64,000 nt of DNA from Escherichia coli (GCF_003334255.1 NZ_QOWU01000016.1), one strand, 5' to 3'. Counted from the first letter of the stretch, positions 1,331 through 50,902 are shown. Made by a program: numbers and translations. The notes: generated by a model from the sequence alone, not told the origin.

Positions 1331-3006
1331 CTCAATTTACGCAAAATACCGCCATGCCTTCTTCCCTCTGGCAATACTGGCGCGGCCTTTCCGGCTGGAA
1401 CTTCTATTTTCTGGTTAAGTTCGGCCTGTTGTGGGCGGGATATCTTAACTTCCATCCGCTCCTCAATTTGGTGTTTGCCGCGTTTCTGCTGATGCCCCTT
1501 CCGCGCTACAGCCTGCATCGCTTGCGCCACTGGATTGCCCTGCCGATCGGCTTTGCTTTGTTCTGGCATGACACCTGGTTGCCTGGCCCGGAAAGCATAA
1601 TGAGCCAGGGTTCGCAGGTGGCGGGGTTCAGTACCGATTATTTAATCGACCTTGTCACACGCTTTATTAACTGGCAGATGATTGGGGCCATTTTTGTTTT
1701 ATTAGTGGCCTGGTTATTCCTGTCACAATGGATTCGCATTACCGTTTTTGTGGTTGCCATACTGCTATGGCTGAACGTACTTACCCTGGCGGGACCAAGT
1801 TTCTCCTTGTGGCCAGCCGGACAACCGACGACCACTGTAACAACGACGGGTGGTAACGCAGCGGCAACCGTTGCGGCGACGGGTGGCGCACCGGTAGTGG
1901 GTGATATGCCCGCACAAACTGCACCGCCAACAACGGCGAACCTTAACGCCTGGCTGAATAATTTCTATAACGCGGAGGCGAAACGTAAATCGACCTTCCC
2001 GTCTTCGCTGCCCGCTGATGCTCAGCCATTTGAACTACTGGTGATTAACATCTGTTCGCTTTCCTGGTCGGATATAGAAGCCGCCGGGTTGATGTCGCAT
2101 CCACTGTGGTCGCATTTCGATATTGAGTTCAAGAACTTTAACTCCGCCACCTCCTACTGTGGCCCGGCGGCGATCCGTTTACTGCGCGCCAGCTGCGGGC
2201 AGACTTCGCACACTAATCTGTATCAACCGGCAAATAACGACTGCTATCTGTTTGATAACCTTTCGAAACTGGGCTTTACCCAGCACCTGATGATGGGACA
2301 TAACGGCCAGTTCGGCGGTTTTTTGAAAGAAGTTCGCGAAAATGGCGGCATGCAGAGCGAATTGATGGATCAAACAAATCTGCCGGTTATTTTGCTGGGC
2401 TTTGATGGTTCGCCGGTTTATGACGATACCGCTGTGCTTAACCGCTGGCTGGACGTTACCGAAAAAGATAAAAACAGCCGTAGTGCCACGTTCTACAACA
2501 CGCTTCCACTGCATGACGGCAACCATTATCCGGGGGTCAGCAAAACAGCGGATTACAAAGCGCGGGCGCAGAAATTCTTTGATGAACTGGACGCCTTCTT
2601 TACTGAACTTGAGAAATCGGGTCGTAAAGTGATGGTGGTCGTGGTGCCGGAACACGGCGGCGCGCTGAAGGGCGACAGAATGCAGGTATCTGGCCTACGT
2701 GATATCCCTAGCCCGTCTATCACCGACGTCCCCGTTGGGGTGAAATTCTTCGGCATGAAGGCACCGCATCAGGGGGCACCGATTGTCATCGAACAACCGA
2801 GCAGCTTCCTGGCTATCTCCGATCTGGTGGTTCGCGTTCTCGATGGCAAGATTTTCACCGAAGACAATGTTGACTGGAAAAAACTCACCAGTGGGTTGCC
2901 ACAAACAGCACCGGTCTCCGAGAACTCAAATGCAGTAGTTATTCAATACCAGGATAAACCGTACGTTCGCCTGAACGGCGGCGACTGGGTGCCTTACCCG
3001 CAGTAA
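1327..3006 (+). CDS. bcsG: Cellulose phosphoethanolamine transferase BcsG (559 aa)
   Basis: 559-aa ORF; N-terminal multi-TM region, Thr/Gly/Ala-rich linker, C-terminal alkaline-phosphatase-like domain; length matches BcsG. Confidence 0.92.
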
Positions 3007-3009
3007 GAA

Positions 3010-3046
3010 CGAAAAAGGCCGCAGAGTTTCCCCCCTGCGGCCTGGT
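3010..3046 (-). terminator. Hairpin (aggccgcag...ctgcggcct) with T-tract on the minus strand; likely ldrD terminator
   Basis: Inverted repeat read in sequence, followed on the minus strand by tttttcg; lies just downstream of ldrD. Confidence 0.4.
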
Positions 3047-3092
3047 CCGGGCGCAAATTGCCATTACGGCAGCCTGACGCCCGCATGACACG

Positions 3093-3200
3093 TTACTTCC
3101 GCTTGTTCAGCCAGTTCACGATCATACTGGCAAGAATGCCAGCAATGACCGGAGCCGCTAAATCATGCCAGAAGGCCATGCCCAGCTCTGCGAACGTCAT
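3093..3200 (-). CDS. ldrD: Type I toxin LdrD (35 aa small toxic membrane peptide)
   Basis: Last 35 codons of ORF 3093..3368 read MTFAELGMAFWHDLAAPVIAGILASMIVNWLNKRK, the Ldr peptide; ATG (cat on + strand) at 3198-3200. Confidence 0.85.
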   Translation of the reverse strand: MTFAELGMAFWHDLAAPVIAGILASMIVNWLNKRK

Positions 3201-3248
3201 ATAGCCGCCTGTGTTGTAATGACAACGTTTCGCGGCTATTCTTGAGTG

Positions 3249-3314
3249 GTCTAGAGTCAAGATTAGCCCCCGTGGTGTTGTCAGGTGCATACCTGCAACG
3301 TGCGGGGGTTTTCT
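3249..3314 (+). ncRNA. rdlD: Rdl antisense RNA (antitoxin of ldrD), about 66 nt ending in an intrinsic terminator
   Basis: 66-nt stretch gtctagagtcaagattagcccccgtgg...cgggggttttct on the strand opposite the ldrD 5' region; cccccg/cggggg stem plus U-tract; boundaries recalled from the Ldr/Rdl family, not mapped. Confidence 0.55.
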
Positions 3315-3675
3315 CTCTCCAGCAACCAATGCCACCAGGGATAAAGCCCCCGCAACATTGCGCCTCACCGGAACCTTTCCGGCTTGCCGCTGATTCTACG
3401 ATTGCTTTTTACTGTCAGCACCCGGCAATCTTCCTCATTGCGCGATGCCTTCCAGCTTAATTTCTTTATTTGCAATAGTTGCAGTTCATATCCGGGCTGA
3501 CTCCAGACTGGTAGTGAAATGCGCAATTTTGTAGAATTGCGCCTCCTCGCGACCTCCCCAGTGAATCTGTTGCCTCATTTTTTACATACTGCGTATTCGA
3601 CTTCTCCACCTGTTGCGCAAGAGAAACTGGGTTTATTCATTTTTGCGAGGCCGACTTCTTTCTGGACAGGACTTT

Positions 3676-4947
3676 ATGCAGCACAACACACTATCGAAAC
3701 ACAATCAGAAATTGCCGTTTACACGCTACGACTTCGGCTGGGTTTTATTATGCATAGGCATGGCGATTGGTGCCGGAACCGTGCTGATGCCAGTACAAAT
3801 TGGCTTGAAGGGAATTTGGGTATTTATTACCGCAGCGATCATTGCTTATCCTGCCACCTGGGTAGTGCAGGACATTTATTTAAAAACCCTTTCTGAAAGC
3901 GATTCCTGTAATGACTACACCGATATTATCAGTCATTACCTGGGGAAGAACTGGGGAATTTTCCTCGGGGTTATCTACTTTTTGATGATTATCCACGGGA
4001 TTTTTATCTACTCTCTCTCCGTGGTTTTCGACAGCGCCTCGTACCTGAAAACCTTCGGTTTAACCGATGCCGATCTTTCACAATCTCTACTTTATAAAGT
4101 CGCTATTTTCGCCGTACTGGTGGCGATTGCGTCTGGTGGTGAACGATTACTGTTTAAGATTTCCGGGCCAATGGTGGTGGTCAAAGTAGGGATTATTGTC
4201 GTGTTCGGTTTTGCGATGATCCCGCACTGGAATTTCGCCAATATAACCGCCTTCCCGCAAGCCTCCGTCTTTTTCCGCGATGTCTTGCTTACCATTCCAT
4301 TTTGCTTCTTTTCTGCAGTATTTATTCAGGTACTTAACCCAATGAATATTGCCTATCGTAAACGGGAAGCGGATAAAGTACTGGCAACCCGGCTCGCGCT
4401 GCGTACCCACCGAATTAGTTATATCACGCTCATCGCGGTGATCCTGTTTTTTGCCTTTTCGTTTACCTTCTCAATTAGCCACGAAGAAGCCGTTTCTGCC
4501 TTTGAACAAAATATCTCAGCACTGGCGCTGGCCGCGCAGGTGATCCCTGGGCATATCATTCATATCACCTCTACGGTGCTTAATATCTTTGCCGTACTGA
4601 CCGCATTCTTTGGCATTTATCTCGGTTTCCACGAGGCCATTAAAGGCATTATTCTCAATCTGTTAAGCCGAATTATTGATACCAAGAAAATTAACTCACG
4701 CGTGCTGACTCTGGCGATCTGCGCTTTTATCGTCATTACGTTGACGATTTGGGTTTCGTTTCGTGTATCGGTGCTGGTGTTCTTTCAGTTGGGAAGCCCG
4801 TTATATGGTATTGTGTCGTGCCTCATTCCGTTTTTCCTGATCTATAAAGTCGCACAACTGGAAAAACTTCGCGGATTTAAAGCCTGGCTGATTCTGCTGT
4901 ACGGCATTTTGCTATGCTTGTCGCCACTGTTGAAGCTGATTGAGTAA
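3676..4947 (+). CDS. yhjV: Putative amino-acid (Ser/Thr-type HAAAP family) transporter YhjV, 423 aa
   Basis: Polytopic membrane ORF; ATG at 3676 gives [11 protein letters not shown]... matching YhjV length (ORF track extends 21 codons further upstream). Confidence 0.85.
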
Positions 4948-9003: not shown

Positions 9004-9175
9004 CCGGATGGCGCTGCACGCAGAGGCACAGCGCCACCGGGTATACAGATTGTTGACAAAGTGCGCTTTGTTTATGCCGGATGCGGCGTTAACGCCTTAT
9101 CCGGCCTACAAAATCGTGCAAATTCAATACATTGCAGAATTTTCGTAGGCCTGATAAGCGGAGCGCATCAGGCAT
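9004..9175. repeat. REP/BIME palindromic units in the dppA-dppB intergenic region
   Basis: Motifs gccggatgcggcg...cgccttatccggcctac and related imperfect palindromes read in sequence. Confidence 0.6.
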
Positions 9176-10860: not shown

Positions 10861-11394
10861 AGTGGGTTGTCGCTGCCTGACCTTTTTTGTTTTTTGCCCG
10901 GTCGGGTCAACGTTATGAGGTGGGGATGCCGTACTAATTAACATCAGTGTAACAGTGCGGATCCTCCATAAAATGCCCCTCGTGACCTACAATCTGTCAA
11001 CAGAATGTGAAAACGTCAATACAGCCAACCGGGATTTACACCAACGGTGAGAATCCACAGACAAAGATTAAAAAAACTTCAAACAGCTATTTGCAGCAGA
11101 GAAATTTGTGCTACTCCAACATGACCAGAACAATCAGCTTAATATTTAGCAACATTTGGTGATTAAGTTTTATGCATTTAATGAAAAAAATCTGAGGAAA
11201 AGGTGGATATCTGAGCGATTAATACCATGAACGCTAAAACGCACAGCGGAAAATGCCAGGGCCAGCCATAAGTAACGCAAAAAAAGATTTAAGCAAATAT
11301 AAAAAAAGACAATGGTTTCTGTCACAAATCCGTTAATGGATAGTGAGATATGGGGCGCAAATTTGGCAGGGAAATGTGTGTCGTGTAGGTCGAA

Positions 11395-11470
11395 TAAGGC
11401 GGTCGCGCCGCATCCGACAATGGCCGGCACATTTGCCTGATGCGACGCTGACGCGTCTTATCAGGCCTAC
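11395..11470. repeat. REP-like palindromic element
   Basis: gcgccgcatccgaca...gcctgatgcgacgctgacgcgtcttatcaggcctac, REP-type imperfect palindromes. Confidence 0.5.
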
Positions 11471-11471
11471 G

Positions 11472-11805
<334 letters not shown>

Positions 11806-22994: not shown

Positions 22995-23002
22995 GCACAT
23001 CA

Positions 23003-23161
23003 ACGGTTTGACGTACAGACCATTAAAGCAGTGTAGTAAGGCAAGTCCCTTCAAGAGTTATCGTTGATACCCCTCGTAGTGCACATTCCTTTAACGCTTC
23101 AAAATCTGTAAAGCACGCCATATCGCCGAAAGGCACACTTAATTATTAAAGGTAATACACT
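23003..23161 (+). promoter_or_regulatory. cspA long 5' UTR (about 159 nt; cold box and RNA thermosensor region)
   Basis: Sequence upstream of cspA ATG matches the recalled cspA leader; function is established knowledge. Confidence 0.7.
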
Positions 23162-23374
23162 ATGTCCGGTAAAATGACTGGTATCGTAAAATGGTTCAAC
23201 GCTGACAAAGGCTTCGGCTTCATCACTCCTGACGATGGCTCTAAAGATGTGTTCGTACACTTCTCTGCTATCCAGAACGATGGTTACAAATCTCTGGACG
23301 AAGGTCAGAAAGTGTCCTTCACCATCGAAAGCGGCGCTAAAGGCCCGGCAGCTGGTAACGTAACCAGCCTGTAA
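23162..23374 (+). CDS. cspA: Major cold-shock protein CspA (70 aa)
   Basis: Translation [70 protein letters not shown] is CspA. Confidence 0.97.
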
Positions 23375-23402
23375 TCTCTGCTTAAAAGCACAGAATCTAA
23401 GA

Positions 23403-23431
23403 TCCCTGCCATTTGGCGGGGATTTTTTTAT
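23403..23431 (+). terminator. Intrinsic terminator of cspA (ccctgcc-attt-ggcgggg plus T-run)
   Basis: GC-rich hairpin followed by atttttttatttg. Confidence 0.6.
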
Positions 23432-23560: not shown

Positions 23561-23713
23561 TTACTCTTTCAATTTGCAGGCTAAAAACGCCGCCAGCTCA
23601 TAACTCTCCTGTTTAATATGCAATTCACACAGTGAATCTCTTATCATCCAGGTGAAAAATAAAAGCGTGAAACAAATCACTATTAAAGAAAGTAATCTAT
23701 ATTTCTGCGGCAT
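23561..23713 (-). CDS. hokA: Hok-family type I toxin HokA (50 aa)
   Basis: Last 50 codons of ORF 23561..23815 read MPQKYRLLSLIVICFTLLFFTWMIRDSLCELHIKQESYELAAFLACKLKE; ATG at 23711-23713. Confidence 0.85.
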   Translation of the reverse strand: MPQKYRLLSLIVICFTLLFFTWMIRDSLCELHIKQESYELAAFLACKLKE

Positions 23714-23900
23714 TCCCAGCCTCCTGTGTTGATTTCCAACGAGTGATTTATAGTCAGGTGGGGCTTTTCTCTGTCTGCCTTTCGGTGAATACCTGAGACA
23801 AACAGTCTCAAGCACCCGTGGCTATTCTAGCTTAATAAGTTTGTTTCTTCTCCTTGATATAATCCTAAAAAAATCTCATAAAATTAATATATGAGATAAT
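23714..23900. other. hokA upstream control region expected to hold the overlapping mok reading frame and the antisense sok RNA; boundaries not mapped
   Basis: Placement by analogy with hok/sok loci; the ORF track shows the N-terminal extension (MLETVCLRYSPKGRQRKAPPDYKSLVGNQHRRLG) overlapping hokA. Confidence 0.3.
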
Positions 23901-42624: not shown

Positions 42625-42745
42625 TTGCCTGATGCGCTACGCTTATCAGGCCTACATGATTTCTGCAATATATTGAATTTGGAAGAATTTGTAGGCCGGA
42701 TAAGGCGTTTACGCCGCATCTGGCATAAACAAAGCGCACTGTTCC
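42625..42745. repeat. REP/BIME elements between avtA and ysaA
   Basis: gcctgatgcgctacgcttatcaggcctac and ggccggataaggcgtttacgccgcatctggc motifs. Confidence 0.55.
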
Positions 42746-50243: not shown

Positions 50244-50902
50244 GCCGACCACTTCTGCAACTGGCCCTCGACCACTCATCACTTGAAGCCGCGCAGCGCG
50301 ACGTGACGCTGTTAAAAGACAGCGTCGATATCGTCGAAGCGGGCACCATTCTCTGTTTAAACGAAGGGCTTGGCGCGGTGAAAGCCTTGCGCGAACAGTG
50401 CCCGGACAAAATCATCGTTGCTGACTGGAAGGTCGCCGACGCTGGTGAAACGCTCGCGCAACAGGCGTTTGGCGCAGGCGCTAACTGGATGACCATCATC
50501 TGCGCCGCGCCGCTCGCGACGGTAGAAAAAGGCCACGCAATGGCACAACGCTGCGGGGGTGAAATTCAGATAGAGCTGTTCGGTAACTGGACGCTGGACG
50601 ACGCCCGCGACTGGCATCGTATTGGCGTGCGGCAGGCCATTTATCATCGCGGTCGTGATGCACAGGCCAGCGGGCAACAGTGGGGCGAAGCCGATCTGGC
50701 ACGCATGAAGGCGCTTTCAGATATCGGCCTTGAGCTTTCCATTACTGGCGGGATTACCCCTGCTGACCTGCCGCTGTTTAAAGATATCCGCGTGAAAGCG
50801 TTTATTGCCGGGCGGGCACTGGCAGGCGCGGCAAATCCGGCGCAAGTGGCTGGCGATTTCCATGCGCAAATCGACGCTATCTGGGGAGGTGCGCGTGCGT
50901 AA
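50240..50902 (+). CDS. sgbH: 3-keto-L-gulonate-6-phosphate decarboxylase SgbH (220 aa)
   Basis: 220-aa ORF, ATGA overlap with lyxK. Confidence 0.9.

Follow-up and report, generated by a model that had tools for sequence, protein, structure and literature searches.

A known type I toxin-antitoxin unit of Escherichia coli, LDR-D (ldrD/rdlD), with a candidate leader ORF in the target of its antisense RNA

The LDR units of E. coli are type I toxin-antitoxin loci in which a short membrane toxin gene, ldr, is paired with an antisense RNA gene, rdl. Three of them, LDR-A, -B and -C, form the tandem array ldrABC/rdlABC between kdsA and chaA and have the same architecture as LDR-D, with rdl 48 nt upstream of the toxin gene on the other strand. 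LDR-D, which Kawano et al. described in 2002 (as cited in PMC4147584), stands alone as a single copy at a different site of the chromosome. It is 79-80% identical to LDR-A/B/C over 392-393 nt (blastn), and its toxin is placed in a separate 'LdrD group', with a CDS that is 67% identical. Overproduction of LdrD, the same peptide as the one described below, is toxic and causes growth arrest and nucleoid condensation (PMC4147584; PMC8309996), and this toxicity is rescued by RdlD (PMC4147584; PMC8167048). Both ldrD and RdlD are visible on Northern blots, and the duplex between them forms in vivo (PMC7373196). The mechanism of regulation by RdlD was called 'currently unknown' in a 2021 review (PMC8309996). 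A mok-like leader ORF, ldrX, was proposed by Gerdes and Wagner (2007) and needs confirmation (PMC4147584); the hypothesis that ldrX is coupled to ldr also appears in PMC8167048.

Two other systems, hok/mok/sok and Fst, resemble ldrD/rdlD in different ways. Like ldrD/rdlD, the hok/mok/sok system (plasmid R1 and chromosomal hok) makes a small membrane peptide from a highly folded mRNA with a long leader, and its antisense RNA is aimed at that leader and not at the toxin ribosome-binding site. A proposed coupled leader ORF (mok or ldrX) and a predicted 5'-3' fold-back are also common to hok and ldr. In contrast, the toxin families are unrelated (~50 aa for Hok and 35 aa for Ldr/Fst), and 3' processing and translation of the leader ORF are features of hok that in ldr are no more than candidates. 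The toxin itself belongs with that of Fst/RNAI-RNAII (par of pAD1), with which Ldr shares a superfamily defined by a transmembrane helix, a conserved tryptophan and a charged C-terminus (PMC2887945), and both Fst and Ldr cause nucleoid condensation when overexpressed (PMC4147584). Fst-like antisense RNAs pair with the 3' ends of their toxin genes; the pairing partner of Rdl is the 5' leader (PMC2887945).

The locus analyzed here is LDR-D, the ldrD/rdlD unit between bcsG and yhjV. It lies in a 64,000-nucleotide stretch of E. coli DNA (hereafter the window), of which positions 2950-3700 match E. coli K-12 MG1655, and many other E. coli, with 100% identity. At the matching positions, the RefSeq annotation of NC_000913.3 has ldrD (b4453, 3699980-3700087) and rdlD (b4454, 3700136-3700199), with bcsG on one side and yhjV on the other; window coordinates are genome coordinates minus 3,696,887. 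Compared with b4453/b4454 of MG1655, the locus has the same position, DNA, flanking genes, peptide and sRNA, and nothing within it is different. The names, strands, coordinates and type I toxin-antitoxin assignment that had been given to the locus from the sequence alone all agree with RefSeq for MG1655, with Pfam and Rfam, and with published Northern blot and dsRNA data (PMC7373196). Nothing speaks against the identity of the locus, which is already known and annotated and has been the subject of experiments. As a discovery it carries little weight, having been studied since 2002 and having families in both Pfam and Rfam. What it does validate is the sequence-only reading, which found a 35-codon toxin gene and a 66-nt sRNA in raw sequence at their exact coordinates. 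All the elements that it pointed out are real and well above what chance would give. The features discussed below are as follows.

3008-3043, minus strand: intrinsic terminator of ldrD (stem 3043-3016, U-tract 3015-3008), from a terminator scan, folding and conservation.
3044-3092, minus strand: conserved 3' UTR of ldrD, 82% identical between LDR-D and LDR-A, with a predicted fold-back.
3093-3200, minus strand: ldrD CDS, from the ORF, Pfam, PDB 5LBJ and RefSeq b4453; the product is a 35-aa toxin that has one transmembrane helix and ends in W...KRK.
3201-3260, minus strand: candidate leader ORF (ldrX-like), with TTG at 3260-3258 and an SD-like GGGGG at 3272-3268; the frame is open in 15 of 15 loci.
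3201-3385, minus strand: ldrD leader (5' UTR, 185 nt), from the transcription start site (TSS) at 3385; it carries the RdlD target, 3314-3249.
3214-3242, plus strand: putative sigma-70 promoter of rdlD, with -35 TTGTAA at 3214-3219, a 17-nt spacer and -10 TATTCT at 3237-3242, as read from the sequence.
3242-3460, plus strand: 72-codon mechanical ORF, which contains the RdlD terminator at 3265-3314.
3249-3314, plus strand: rdlD RNA, from Rfam RF01813, folding, RefSeq b4454 and the TSS at genome position 3700136 (window 3249).
3281-3358, minus strand: 25-codon upstream ORF, MLRGLYPWWHWLLERENPRTLQVCT, present in LDR-A, -B and -D.
3393-3398, minus strand: putative ldrD -10 hexamer TAGAAT, from sequence and alignment, 7 nt before the TSS; TAGTAT in LDR-A/B/C.
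3519-3896, plus strand: 125-codon mechanical ORF, which overlaps yhjV (ATG at 3676) out of frame.
23561-23713, minus strand: hokA CDS, 20.6 kb away from ldrD.

The toxin gene on the minus strand encodes LdrD. The ORF starts with ATG at 3200 and stops with TAA at 3095-3093, and its translation product is MTFAELGMAFWHDLAAPVIAGILASMIVNWLNKRK (35 aa). The peptide matched Pfam family PF13940 (Ldr_toxin) from the first to the last position of the model (1-35/35, 93.7 bits, E=6.9e-27), and all 35 residues were identical to PDB entry 5LBJ, 'Small toxic polypeptide LdrD', which is an NMR structure. PGAP also names the peptide LdrD. These matches, together with b4453, bear out what had been proposed, a 35-codon gene for a membrane toxin on the minus strand. 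A peptide that did not match the Ldr family had been named beforehand as grounds for giving up that proposal, and the peptide fits Ldr_toxin over its full length. The signature of the Ldr/Fst superfamily, described as a hydrophobic helix, then a conserved Trp and several charged residues clustered at the C-terminus (Fozo et al. 2010, PMC2887945), can be read in LdrD as ...AAPVIAGILASMIVNW-LNKRK, where the hydrophobic helix is followed by Trp and the charged C-terminus. An NCBIfam scan of LdrD matched no family, and the NCBIfam Fst model gave 11.9 bits (E=0.15), below its cut-off of 26. Because Pfam and PDB both match, we regard the NCBIfam miss as a gap in that library and not as counter-evidence on identity.

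The RNA encoded opposite the ldrD leader is RdlD. In a scan of the 64-kb window at gathering thresholds, Rfam RF01813 (rdlD) matched 3249-3314 on the plus strand over the entire model (1-66/66) with 87.0 bits (E=5e-17), above its gathering score of 50. This was the kind of covariance-model search for the Rdl family that the sequence-only reading had recommended as a check on its 66-nt antisense RNA with a strong terminator, and the match begins and ends at exactly the predicted nucleotides. The RNA is 64 nt long in RefSeq (window 3249-3312) versus 66 nt in the Rfam model. Its minimum free energy was -29.5 kcal/mol (z=-3.98), and 0 of 200 dinucleotide shuffles folded equally well. RdlD has a single-stranded 5' tail (nt 1-16) and a G+C-rich stem-loop that doubles as the intrinsic terminator and is followed by a UUUUCU tail; the terminator, with its AGCCCCCG/CGGGGGU stem and that tail, lies within the RF01813 alignment. 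For covariation in the hairpin, the 13 comparison sequences had been picked by their outer-stem pattern, and the variation among them sits in the tail and loop. The 5' tail and apical loop of RdlD differ from those of RdlA-C, and these differences plausibly give cognate specificity.

Transcription of rdlD probably starts from a promoter within the ldrD leader. The published rdlD TSS, at 3700136 or window 3249 (PMC7967276 Table S1), sits 6 nt after the putative -10 TATTCT. Both hexamers are invariant in LDR-A/B/C/D and match the consensus at 8 of 12 positions; a strict sigma-70 scan of 2900-3750 with a threshold of 9/12 listed no promoter. The promoters of rdlD and ldrD were both read by eye and then checked against the published TSSs.

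The target of RdlD lies upstream of the signals for ldrD translation. The rdlD gene (3249-3314, plus strand) is divergent to ldrD and antisense to its 5' leader, between the ldrD AUG at 3200 and the ldrD TSS at 3385 on the minus strand. RdlD is perfectly complementary to leader nt 72-137 and overlaps neither the ldrD CDS nor the ldrD ribosome-binding site. Because the near end of the target is 48 nt upstream of the ldrD AUG, a direct block of the ldrD ribosome-binding site is impossible and repression is indirect.

The functional unit is the LDR-D repeat, which extends from ~3008 to ~3398 (~390 bp). The module had been described as compact, at 3093-3314. The elements in that interval are real, but compactness understates the unit, with conservation from ~3009 to ~3400 in the alignment of LDR-D with LDR-A/B/C and a TSS at 3385. 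Beyond these limits, identity among the LDR copies was 44% upstream and 21% downstream. Homology to LDR-A/B/C spans the promoter, leader, CDS, 3' UTR and terminator, which places the locus among the LDR repeats (a unit of ~0.5 kb). The LDR-D unit contains the ldrD promoter, the TSS at 3385, the 185-nt leader, the CDS, the conserved 3' UTR and the terminator. The ldrD promoter has a weak -35, and the similarity among LDR copies falls to that 44% upstream of the -10. From the published ldrD TSS, at 3700272 or window 3385 (PMC7967276 Table S1), it follows that the mRNA is ~375 nt long with a leader of 185 nt.

The hairpin downstream from the ldrD stop codon is the terminator of ldrD. A hairpin at 3010-3046, between the bcsG and ldrD stops, had been reported as a separate element. 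The hairpin does exist in the interval that separates the bcsG stop (3004-3006) from the ldrD stop (3093-3095), with a stem of 11 pairs at 3016-3043 that on the minus strand has a folding energy of -26.4 kcal/mol (z=-4.08) and is followed by the tail UUUUUCGUU. It is not separate, however. We assign it to ldrD because only the minus strand carries the U-tract and because conservation of the hairpin extends to LDR-A/B/C, none of which is near bcsG. We also considered a bidirectional terminator shared by bcsG and ldrD. On the plus strand there is no U-tract after the stem, and as a terminator for bcsG the hairpin is not canonical.

In E. coli, LDR-D is in effect part of the core genome, and the total number of LDR units varies. 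A comparison of ldr/rdl copy number with other E. coli genomes had been suggested along with the original reading. Using the LDR core (3093-3400) as the query, we found it in all 5426 complete E. coli genomes (5426/5426), at a median of 4 places per genome (range 1-12); 27 of the places were on plasmids. The control, MG1655, had 4 places, the known number of LDR units in that strain. In 5393 complete E. coli genomes, 80% or more of a query spanning bcsG-ldrD-yhjV was covered.

Structural constraint appears to act on the ldr mRNA. Between LDR-D and LDR-A, identity was 90% in the leader and 82% in the 3' UTR versus 67% in the CDS, and folding of the single ldrD mRNA sequence gave z=-8.66. For comparisons we used 15 further ldr units, from E. 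coli, E. whittamii, Escherichia sp. E1V33, Citrobacter sedlakii, Pseudocitrobacter faecalis and P. vendiensis. In the RNAalifold consensus of 15 ldr mRNAs, the 3' UTR (3083-3057) was predicted to pair with the region of the ldrD SD and AUG (3226-3191), and a second long-range pairing was predicted between UGCGCC at 3055-3050 and GGCGCA at 3364-3359. In this consensus fold, 97.7% of cells were paired, compared to 35-50% in slid controls. Compensatory changes were found in 7 consensus pairs, a number reached by 0 of 500 shuffles, with the structure having been derived from the same alignment. The 5'-terminal hairpin of ldrD (3379-3370) shows compensatory changes. The long-range helices (2 and 7-9) were 95-99% paired and mostly invariant; the changes in them were mostly one-sided and G-U-compatible, with one compensatory pair.

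The leader contains a candidate ORF that starts inside the RdlD target. Both the TTG start and its SD-like GGGGG are opposite the single-stranded tail and the 5' stem arm of RdlD, and the TTG is invariant. In 15 of 15 loci, which come from 6 species, no stop interrupts the frame between the TTG and the ldr AUG, even though there are indels that shift it. The other leader frames have stops in 15/15 loci (frame +1) and in 4/15 (frame +2, which is open in the other 11/15). The phase of the leader ORF relative to ldr varies: it is in frame in LDR-D, where a 1-nt insertion puts it in frame with ldrD, it ends in an ATGA overlap in LDR-A/B/C, and it is at +17 in two Pseudocitrobacter copies. The openness of the frame is confounded, because the same 60 nt carry the rdlD promoter hexamers and predicted mRNA helices, and conservation at the nucleotide level could by itself account for it. 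The TTG and its SD are themselves part of a hairpin (helix 6) of the predicted fold. RefSeq lists no leader ORF for MG1655. Judged from the alignments, the open TTG frame fits the ldrX idea and marks a candidate ORF.

Two other leader ORFs were considered as ldrX and set aside. An ATG at 3290, also in frame and inside the RdlD target, is not conserved in LDR-A/B/C, and we prefer the invariant TTG at 3260. The 25-codon upstream ORF (3358-3281) has no overlap with the start region of ldrD; its frame is shifted in LDR-C, and it is cut to 21 codons in Pseudocitrobacter. That ORF had no match in NCBIfam and overlaps the GCGGGGG/CCCCCGC hairpin of the leader. We regard it, with some uncertainty, as a probable by-product of conserved RNA structure.

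A hok/sok-like model, in which the start of a leader ORF lies in the RdlD target and the 3' UTR is predicted to fold back over the ldrD start, fits these comparisons. Published experiments provide the expression of both RNAs, their TSSs, the presence of dsRNA in vivo, and the toxicity of LdrD with its rescue by RdlD (PMC7373196; PMC7967276; PMC4147584). According to the model, a weak promoter (-10 TAGAAT, 3398-3393) would drive a structured ldrD mRNA of ~375 nt on the minus strand, from 3385 to ~3010, that encodes the 35-aa inner-membrane toxin LdrD at 3200-3093, and a divergent promoter within the leader (TTGTAA-17-TATTCT) would drive the 64-66-nt RdlD on the plus strand, 3249-3312/3314. In the full-length mRNA, the ldrD SD and AUG would be sequestered by the conserved 3' UTR, and synthesis of LdrD would depend on ribosomes coming from the ldrX-like leader ORF. 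The 5' tail and 5' stem arm of RdlD would cover the SD-like GGGGG and the TTG, thereby blocking the leader ORF and, with it, LdrD. The duplex of RdlD and the leader would then be open to cleavage by RNase III. We give the leader-ORF step of this mechanism about even chances and divide the rest between a mechanism driven by degradation and a purely structural one.

The cleavage step could itself be the main route of repression, with RNase III cutting the duplex and the ldrD mRNA then being degraded, and with no leader ORF. Several published results agree with this: p19 capture yielded an abundant cluster of ~21 nt dsRNA in the rdlD/ldrD overlap, the third most abundant of the clusters that overlap an sRNA (PMC7373196), a short ldrD fragment builds up in rnc mutants only (PMC7373196), and type I antitoxins remove the active transcript by RNase III cleavage (PMC11997105). 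However, in rnc mutants ldrD and RdlD had levels and half-lives that were no more than 'slightly increased' (PMC7373196), a cut in the leader at least 48 nt upstream of the AUG would not alone remove the coding part, and reviews class Ldr/Rdl under 'inhibit protein synthesis' (PMC4147584). Because ldrD and RdlD are only slightly stabilized in rnc mutants, RNase III cleavage looks secondary to a translational block, and we consider mRNA destruction as the main mechanism to be rather doubtful. A purely structural action of RdlD, also without a leader ORF, would have its binding lock the leader or prevent a refolding or processing event that frees the SD and AUG from the fold-back. The stability of the mRNA fold (z=-8.66), the conservation in 15 loci of the pairing by which the 3' UTR is predicted to sequester the start region, and the greater conservation of leader and 3' UTR than of the CDS all point in this direction, and 3' processing of hok and folding of the H. 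pylori aapA1 mRNA (PMC5416894) are precedents. This explanation is unlikely in our view; it leaves unexplained why the TTG frame is open in 15/15 loci despite frame-shifting indels.

The locus might have no present function at all and be an evolutionary relic, a selfish or decaying repeat that is merely tolerated. Deletion mutants of ldrD and rdlD were like wild type in proton-gradient dissipation (PMC11997105), the neighboring hokA locus is clearly degenerate (see below), and one Pseudocitrobacter copy has a premature stop. Against this stand the presence of Ldr/Rdl units in 5426/5426 complete E. coli genomes and of bcsG-ldrD-yhjV (at least 80% covered) in 5393, the stronger constraint on the non-coding parts than on the CDS, the expression of both RNAs and their duplex in vivo (PMC7373196), and depolarization staining that was significantly raised in an rdlD mutant (PMC11997105). 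We regard a relic as very unlikely. The idea that one of the plus-strand ORFs, of 72 or 125 codons, is a real protein gene and the 'sRNA' a part of its mRNA is hardly credible. Both ORFs do exist mechanically, but neither is annotated in RefSeq/PGAP and neither matched a family in NCBIfam. In paralogues, the 72-codon frame is broken, by a stop at codon 4 (E69 and E1V33 copies) or at codon 16 (P. faecalis), and ends at varied positions elsewhere; it also has the terminator at 3265-3314 inside it, and the 125-codon ORF runs out of frame over yhjV. Both had been dismissed as spurious at the outset, and the missing annotation, the lack of NCBIfam matches and the broken 72-codon frame justify that dismissal.

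The ldr leaders resemble the hok leader. Rfam RF01794, which is named 'sok', matched ldr leaders in the hok-sense orientation, ending on the toxin AUG. The match to the LDR-D leader (3351-3198) was full length with 24.2 bits (E about 0.001-0.004), and the matches to 8 other ldr leaders were full length with 27-41 bits (best E=4.9e-6). All 9 of the ldr leaders tested were matched, always on the ldr-sense strand and always ending at the ldr AUG, and none of the 9 (24-41 bits) reached the gathering score of 59. At the level of these model scores, the relationship of the ldr leader to the hok leader is one of consistent resemblance and not of membership. We tentatively raise the possibility that ldr and hok leaders are distant homologues, a single ancestral regulatory RNA chassis carrying unrelated toxin ORFs, and that the true target of RdlD is a TTG-initiated ldrX whose translation opens the start region closed by the 3' UTR. 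Because coupling was already proposed by Gerdes and Wagner (2007), only the claim of homology and the specific TTG start would be new. The remaining interest of the locus is in how RdlD represses ldrD, and the comparative observations give concrete targets for a mutational test: the start of the leader ORF inside the RdlD target, the predicted fold-back of the 3' UTR over the start codon, and the sub-threshold likeness to the hok leader.

The other type I locus in the window, hokA, is degenerate as judged from its sequence, and its hok leader is not wild type. The sequence-only reading had counted ldrD and hokA as two type I toxin loci within 21 kb. The distance holds (20.6 kb), but hokA does not stand as an intact second locus, with 45 bp of its leader missing. 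Rfam sok matched at 23817-23711. In MG1655, IS150 interrupts the hokA locus, and the annotation gives mokA and sokA as pseudogenes. In the window, IS150 is absent and the flanks are 100% identical to MG1655; the missing IS150 rules out that the window is plain MG1655. The junction in the window was found as a single 100% piece in 0 of 5426 genomes, and natural strains that are free of the IS have 45 bp more of the hok leader at the junction than the window does. The window looks like K-12 sequence that has had the IS taken out.

The differences among Rdl antisense antitoxin RNAs clustered at two sites, the 5' tail and apical loop. Among 13 Rdl sequences, which had been chosen by stem sequence, the stems were invariant and the differences fell largely in two parts of the molecule. 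The corresponding parts of RdlD, and an ORF in the ldrD leader, are located as follows:

3249-3256, plus strand: variable 5' tail of RdlD (nt 1-8)
3287-3295, plus strand: variable apical loop of RdlD (nt 39-47)
3281-3358, minus strand: 25-codon ORF (MLRGLYPWWHWLLERENPRTLQVCT), located within the best-conserved stretch of the ldrD leader

Antisense recognition usually begins at such places, and variation in the tail and loop may set the cognate specificity of RdlD versus that of RdlA-C.

The 25-codon leader ORF is kept in LDR-A, -B, and -D, is frameshifted in LDR-C, and has 21 codons in its Pseudocitrobacter version. The GCGGGGG/CCCCCGC hairpin probably gives rise to this ORF as a by-product, but the ORF might be translated.

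The leaders of ldr genes resemble those of hok genes. The Rfam hok-leader ('sok') model, RF01794, matched every ldr leader tested over its full length with scores of 24-41 bits, all below the gathering score of 59. These matches were at 3198-3351 on the minus strand of the window and in six other records carrying ldr units (L003, L005, L006, L007, L008, and L014), and each was on the sense strand and ended on the ldr AUG. This resemblance hints at a common architecture or ancestry of hok and ldr leaders.

The hokA locus in the window differs from that of MG1655, in which IS150 (insJK) sits within hokA/mokA/sokA. The window has no IS150 in 23561-23820, and both flanks of the junction, at ~23744, are 100% identical to MG1655. 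Natural IS-free strains, e.g., HH97, have 45 bp more at this position (AAAGTGAGGCCCCTCTATGCATAGACACCATAAGGTTAGCCTCTT), and the window's junction was found as a single 100% piece in none of 5426 genomes. These results suggest that the window comes from a K-12 derivative in which the IS was cured or masked. The window still has a defective hok leader.

Further Rfam matches in the window, all at gathering threshold (11388-11805, 9110-9152, 42648-42690, and 23002-23429), comprised the cspA thermoregulator, naRNA4/CssrE, two ES036/CssrF RNAs, and one RNA beside a tRNA:

11561-11805: RtT RNA, at gathering threshold

All of these matches fit the dpp-proK-cspA region of K-12.

LDR-D is single in K-12, whereas Escherichia sp. 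E1V33 has a tandem pair of LDR-D-type units, 484 bp apart (L011 3692-4567) and ~95% identical to the window. In the second copy, the motif CTAATCTTG, which surrounds the candidate start of the leader ORF, is changed to CCATTCTTG. In the ldr homologue of Pseudocitrobacter vendiensis (L014 1245-1634), codon 31 is a premature stop (…IVGW*RNRK), and this copy is probably inactive; its rdl still scored 85 bits on the Rfam model. LDR-D-type sequence 96-98% identical to the window was also present on NZ_JABWSY010000055.1, a 503-bp contig with 0.66x coverage from the 'Bacillus sp. EB106-08-02-XG196' assembly, and is almost certainly Escherichia contamination. Of ~24,270 LDR matches in E. coli genomes, 27 were plasmid-borne, e.g., at 50471-50652 of NZ_AP040233.1, a 94.5-kb plasmid (90% identity, with an annotated Ldr-family toxin).
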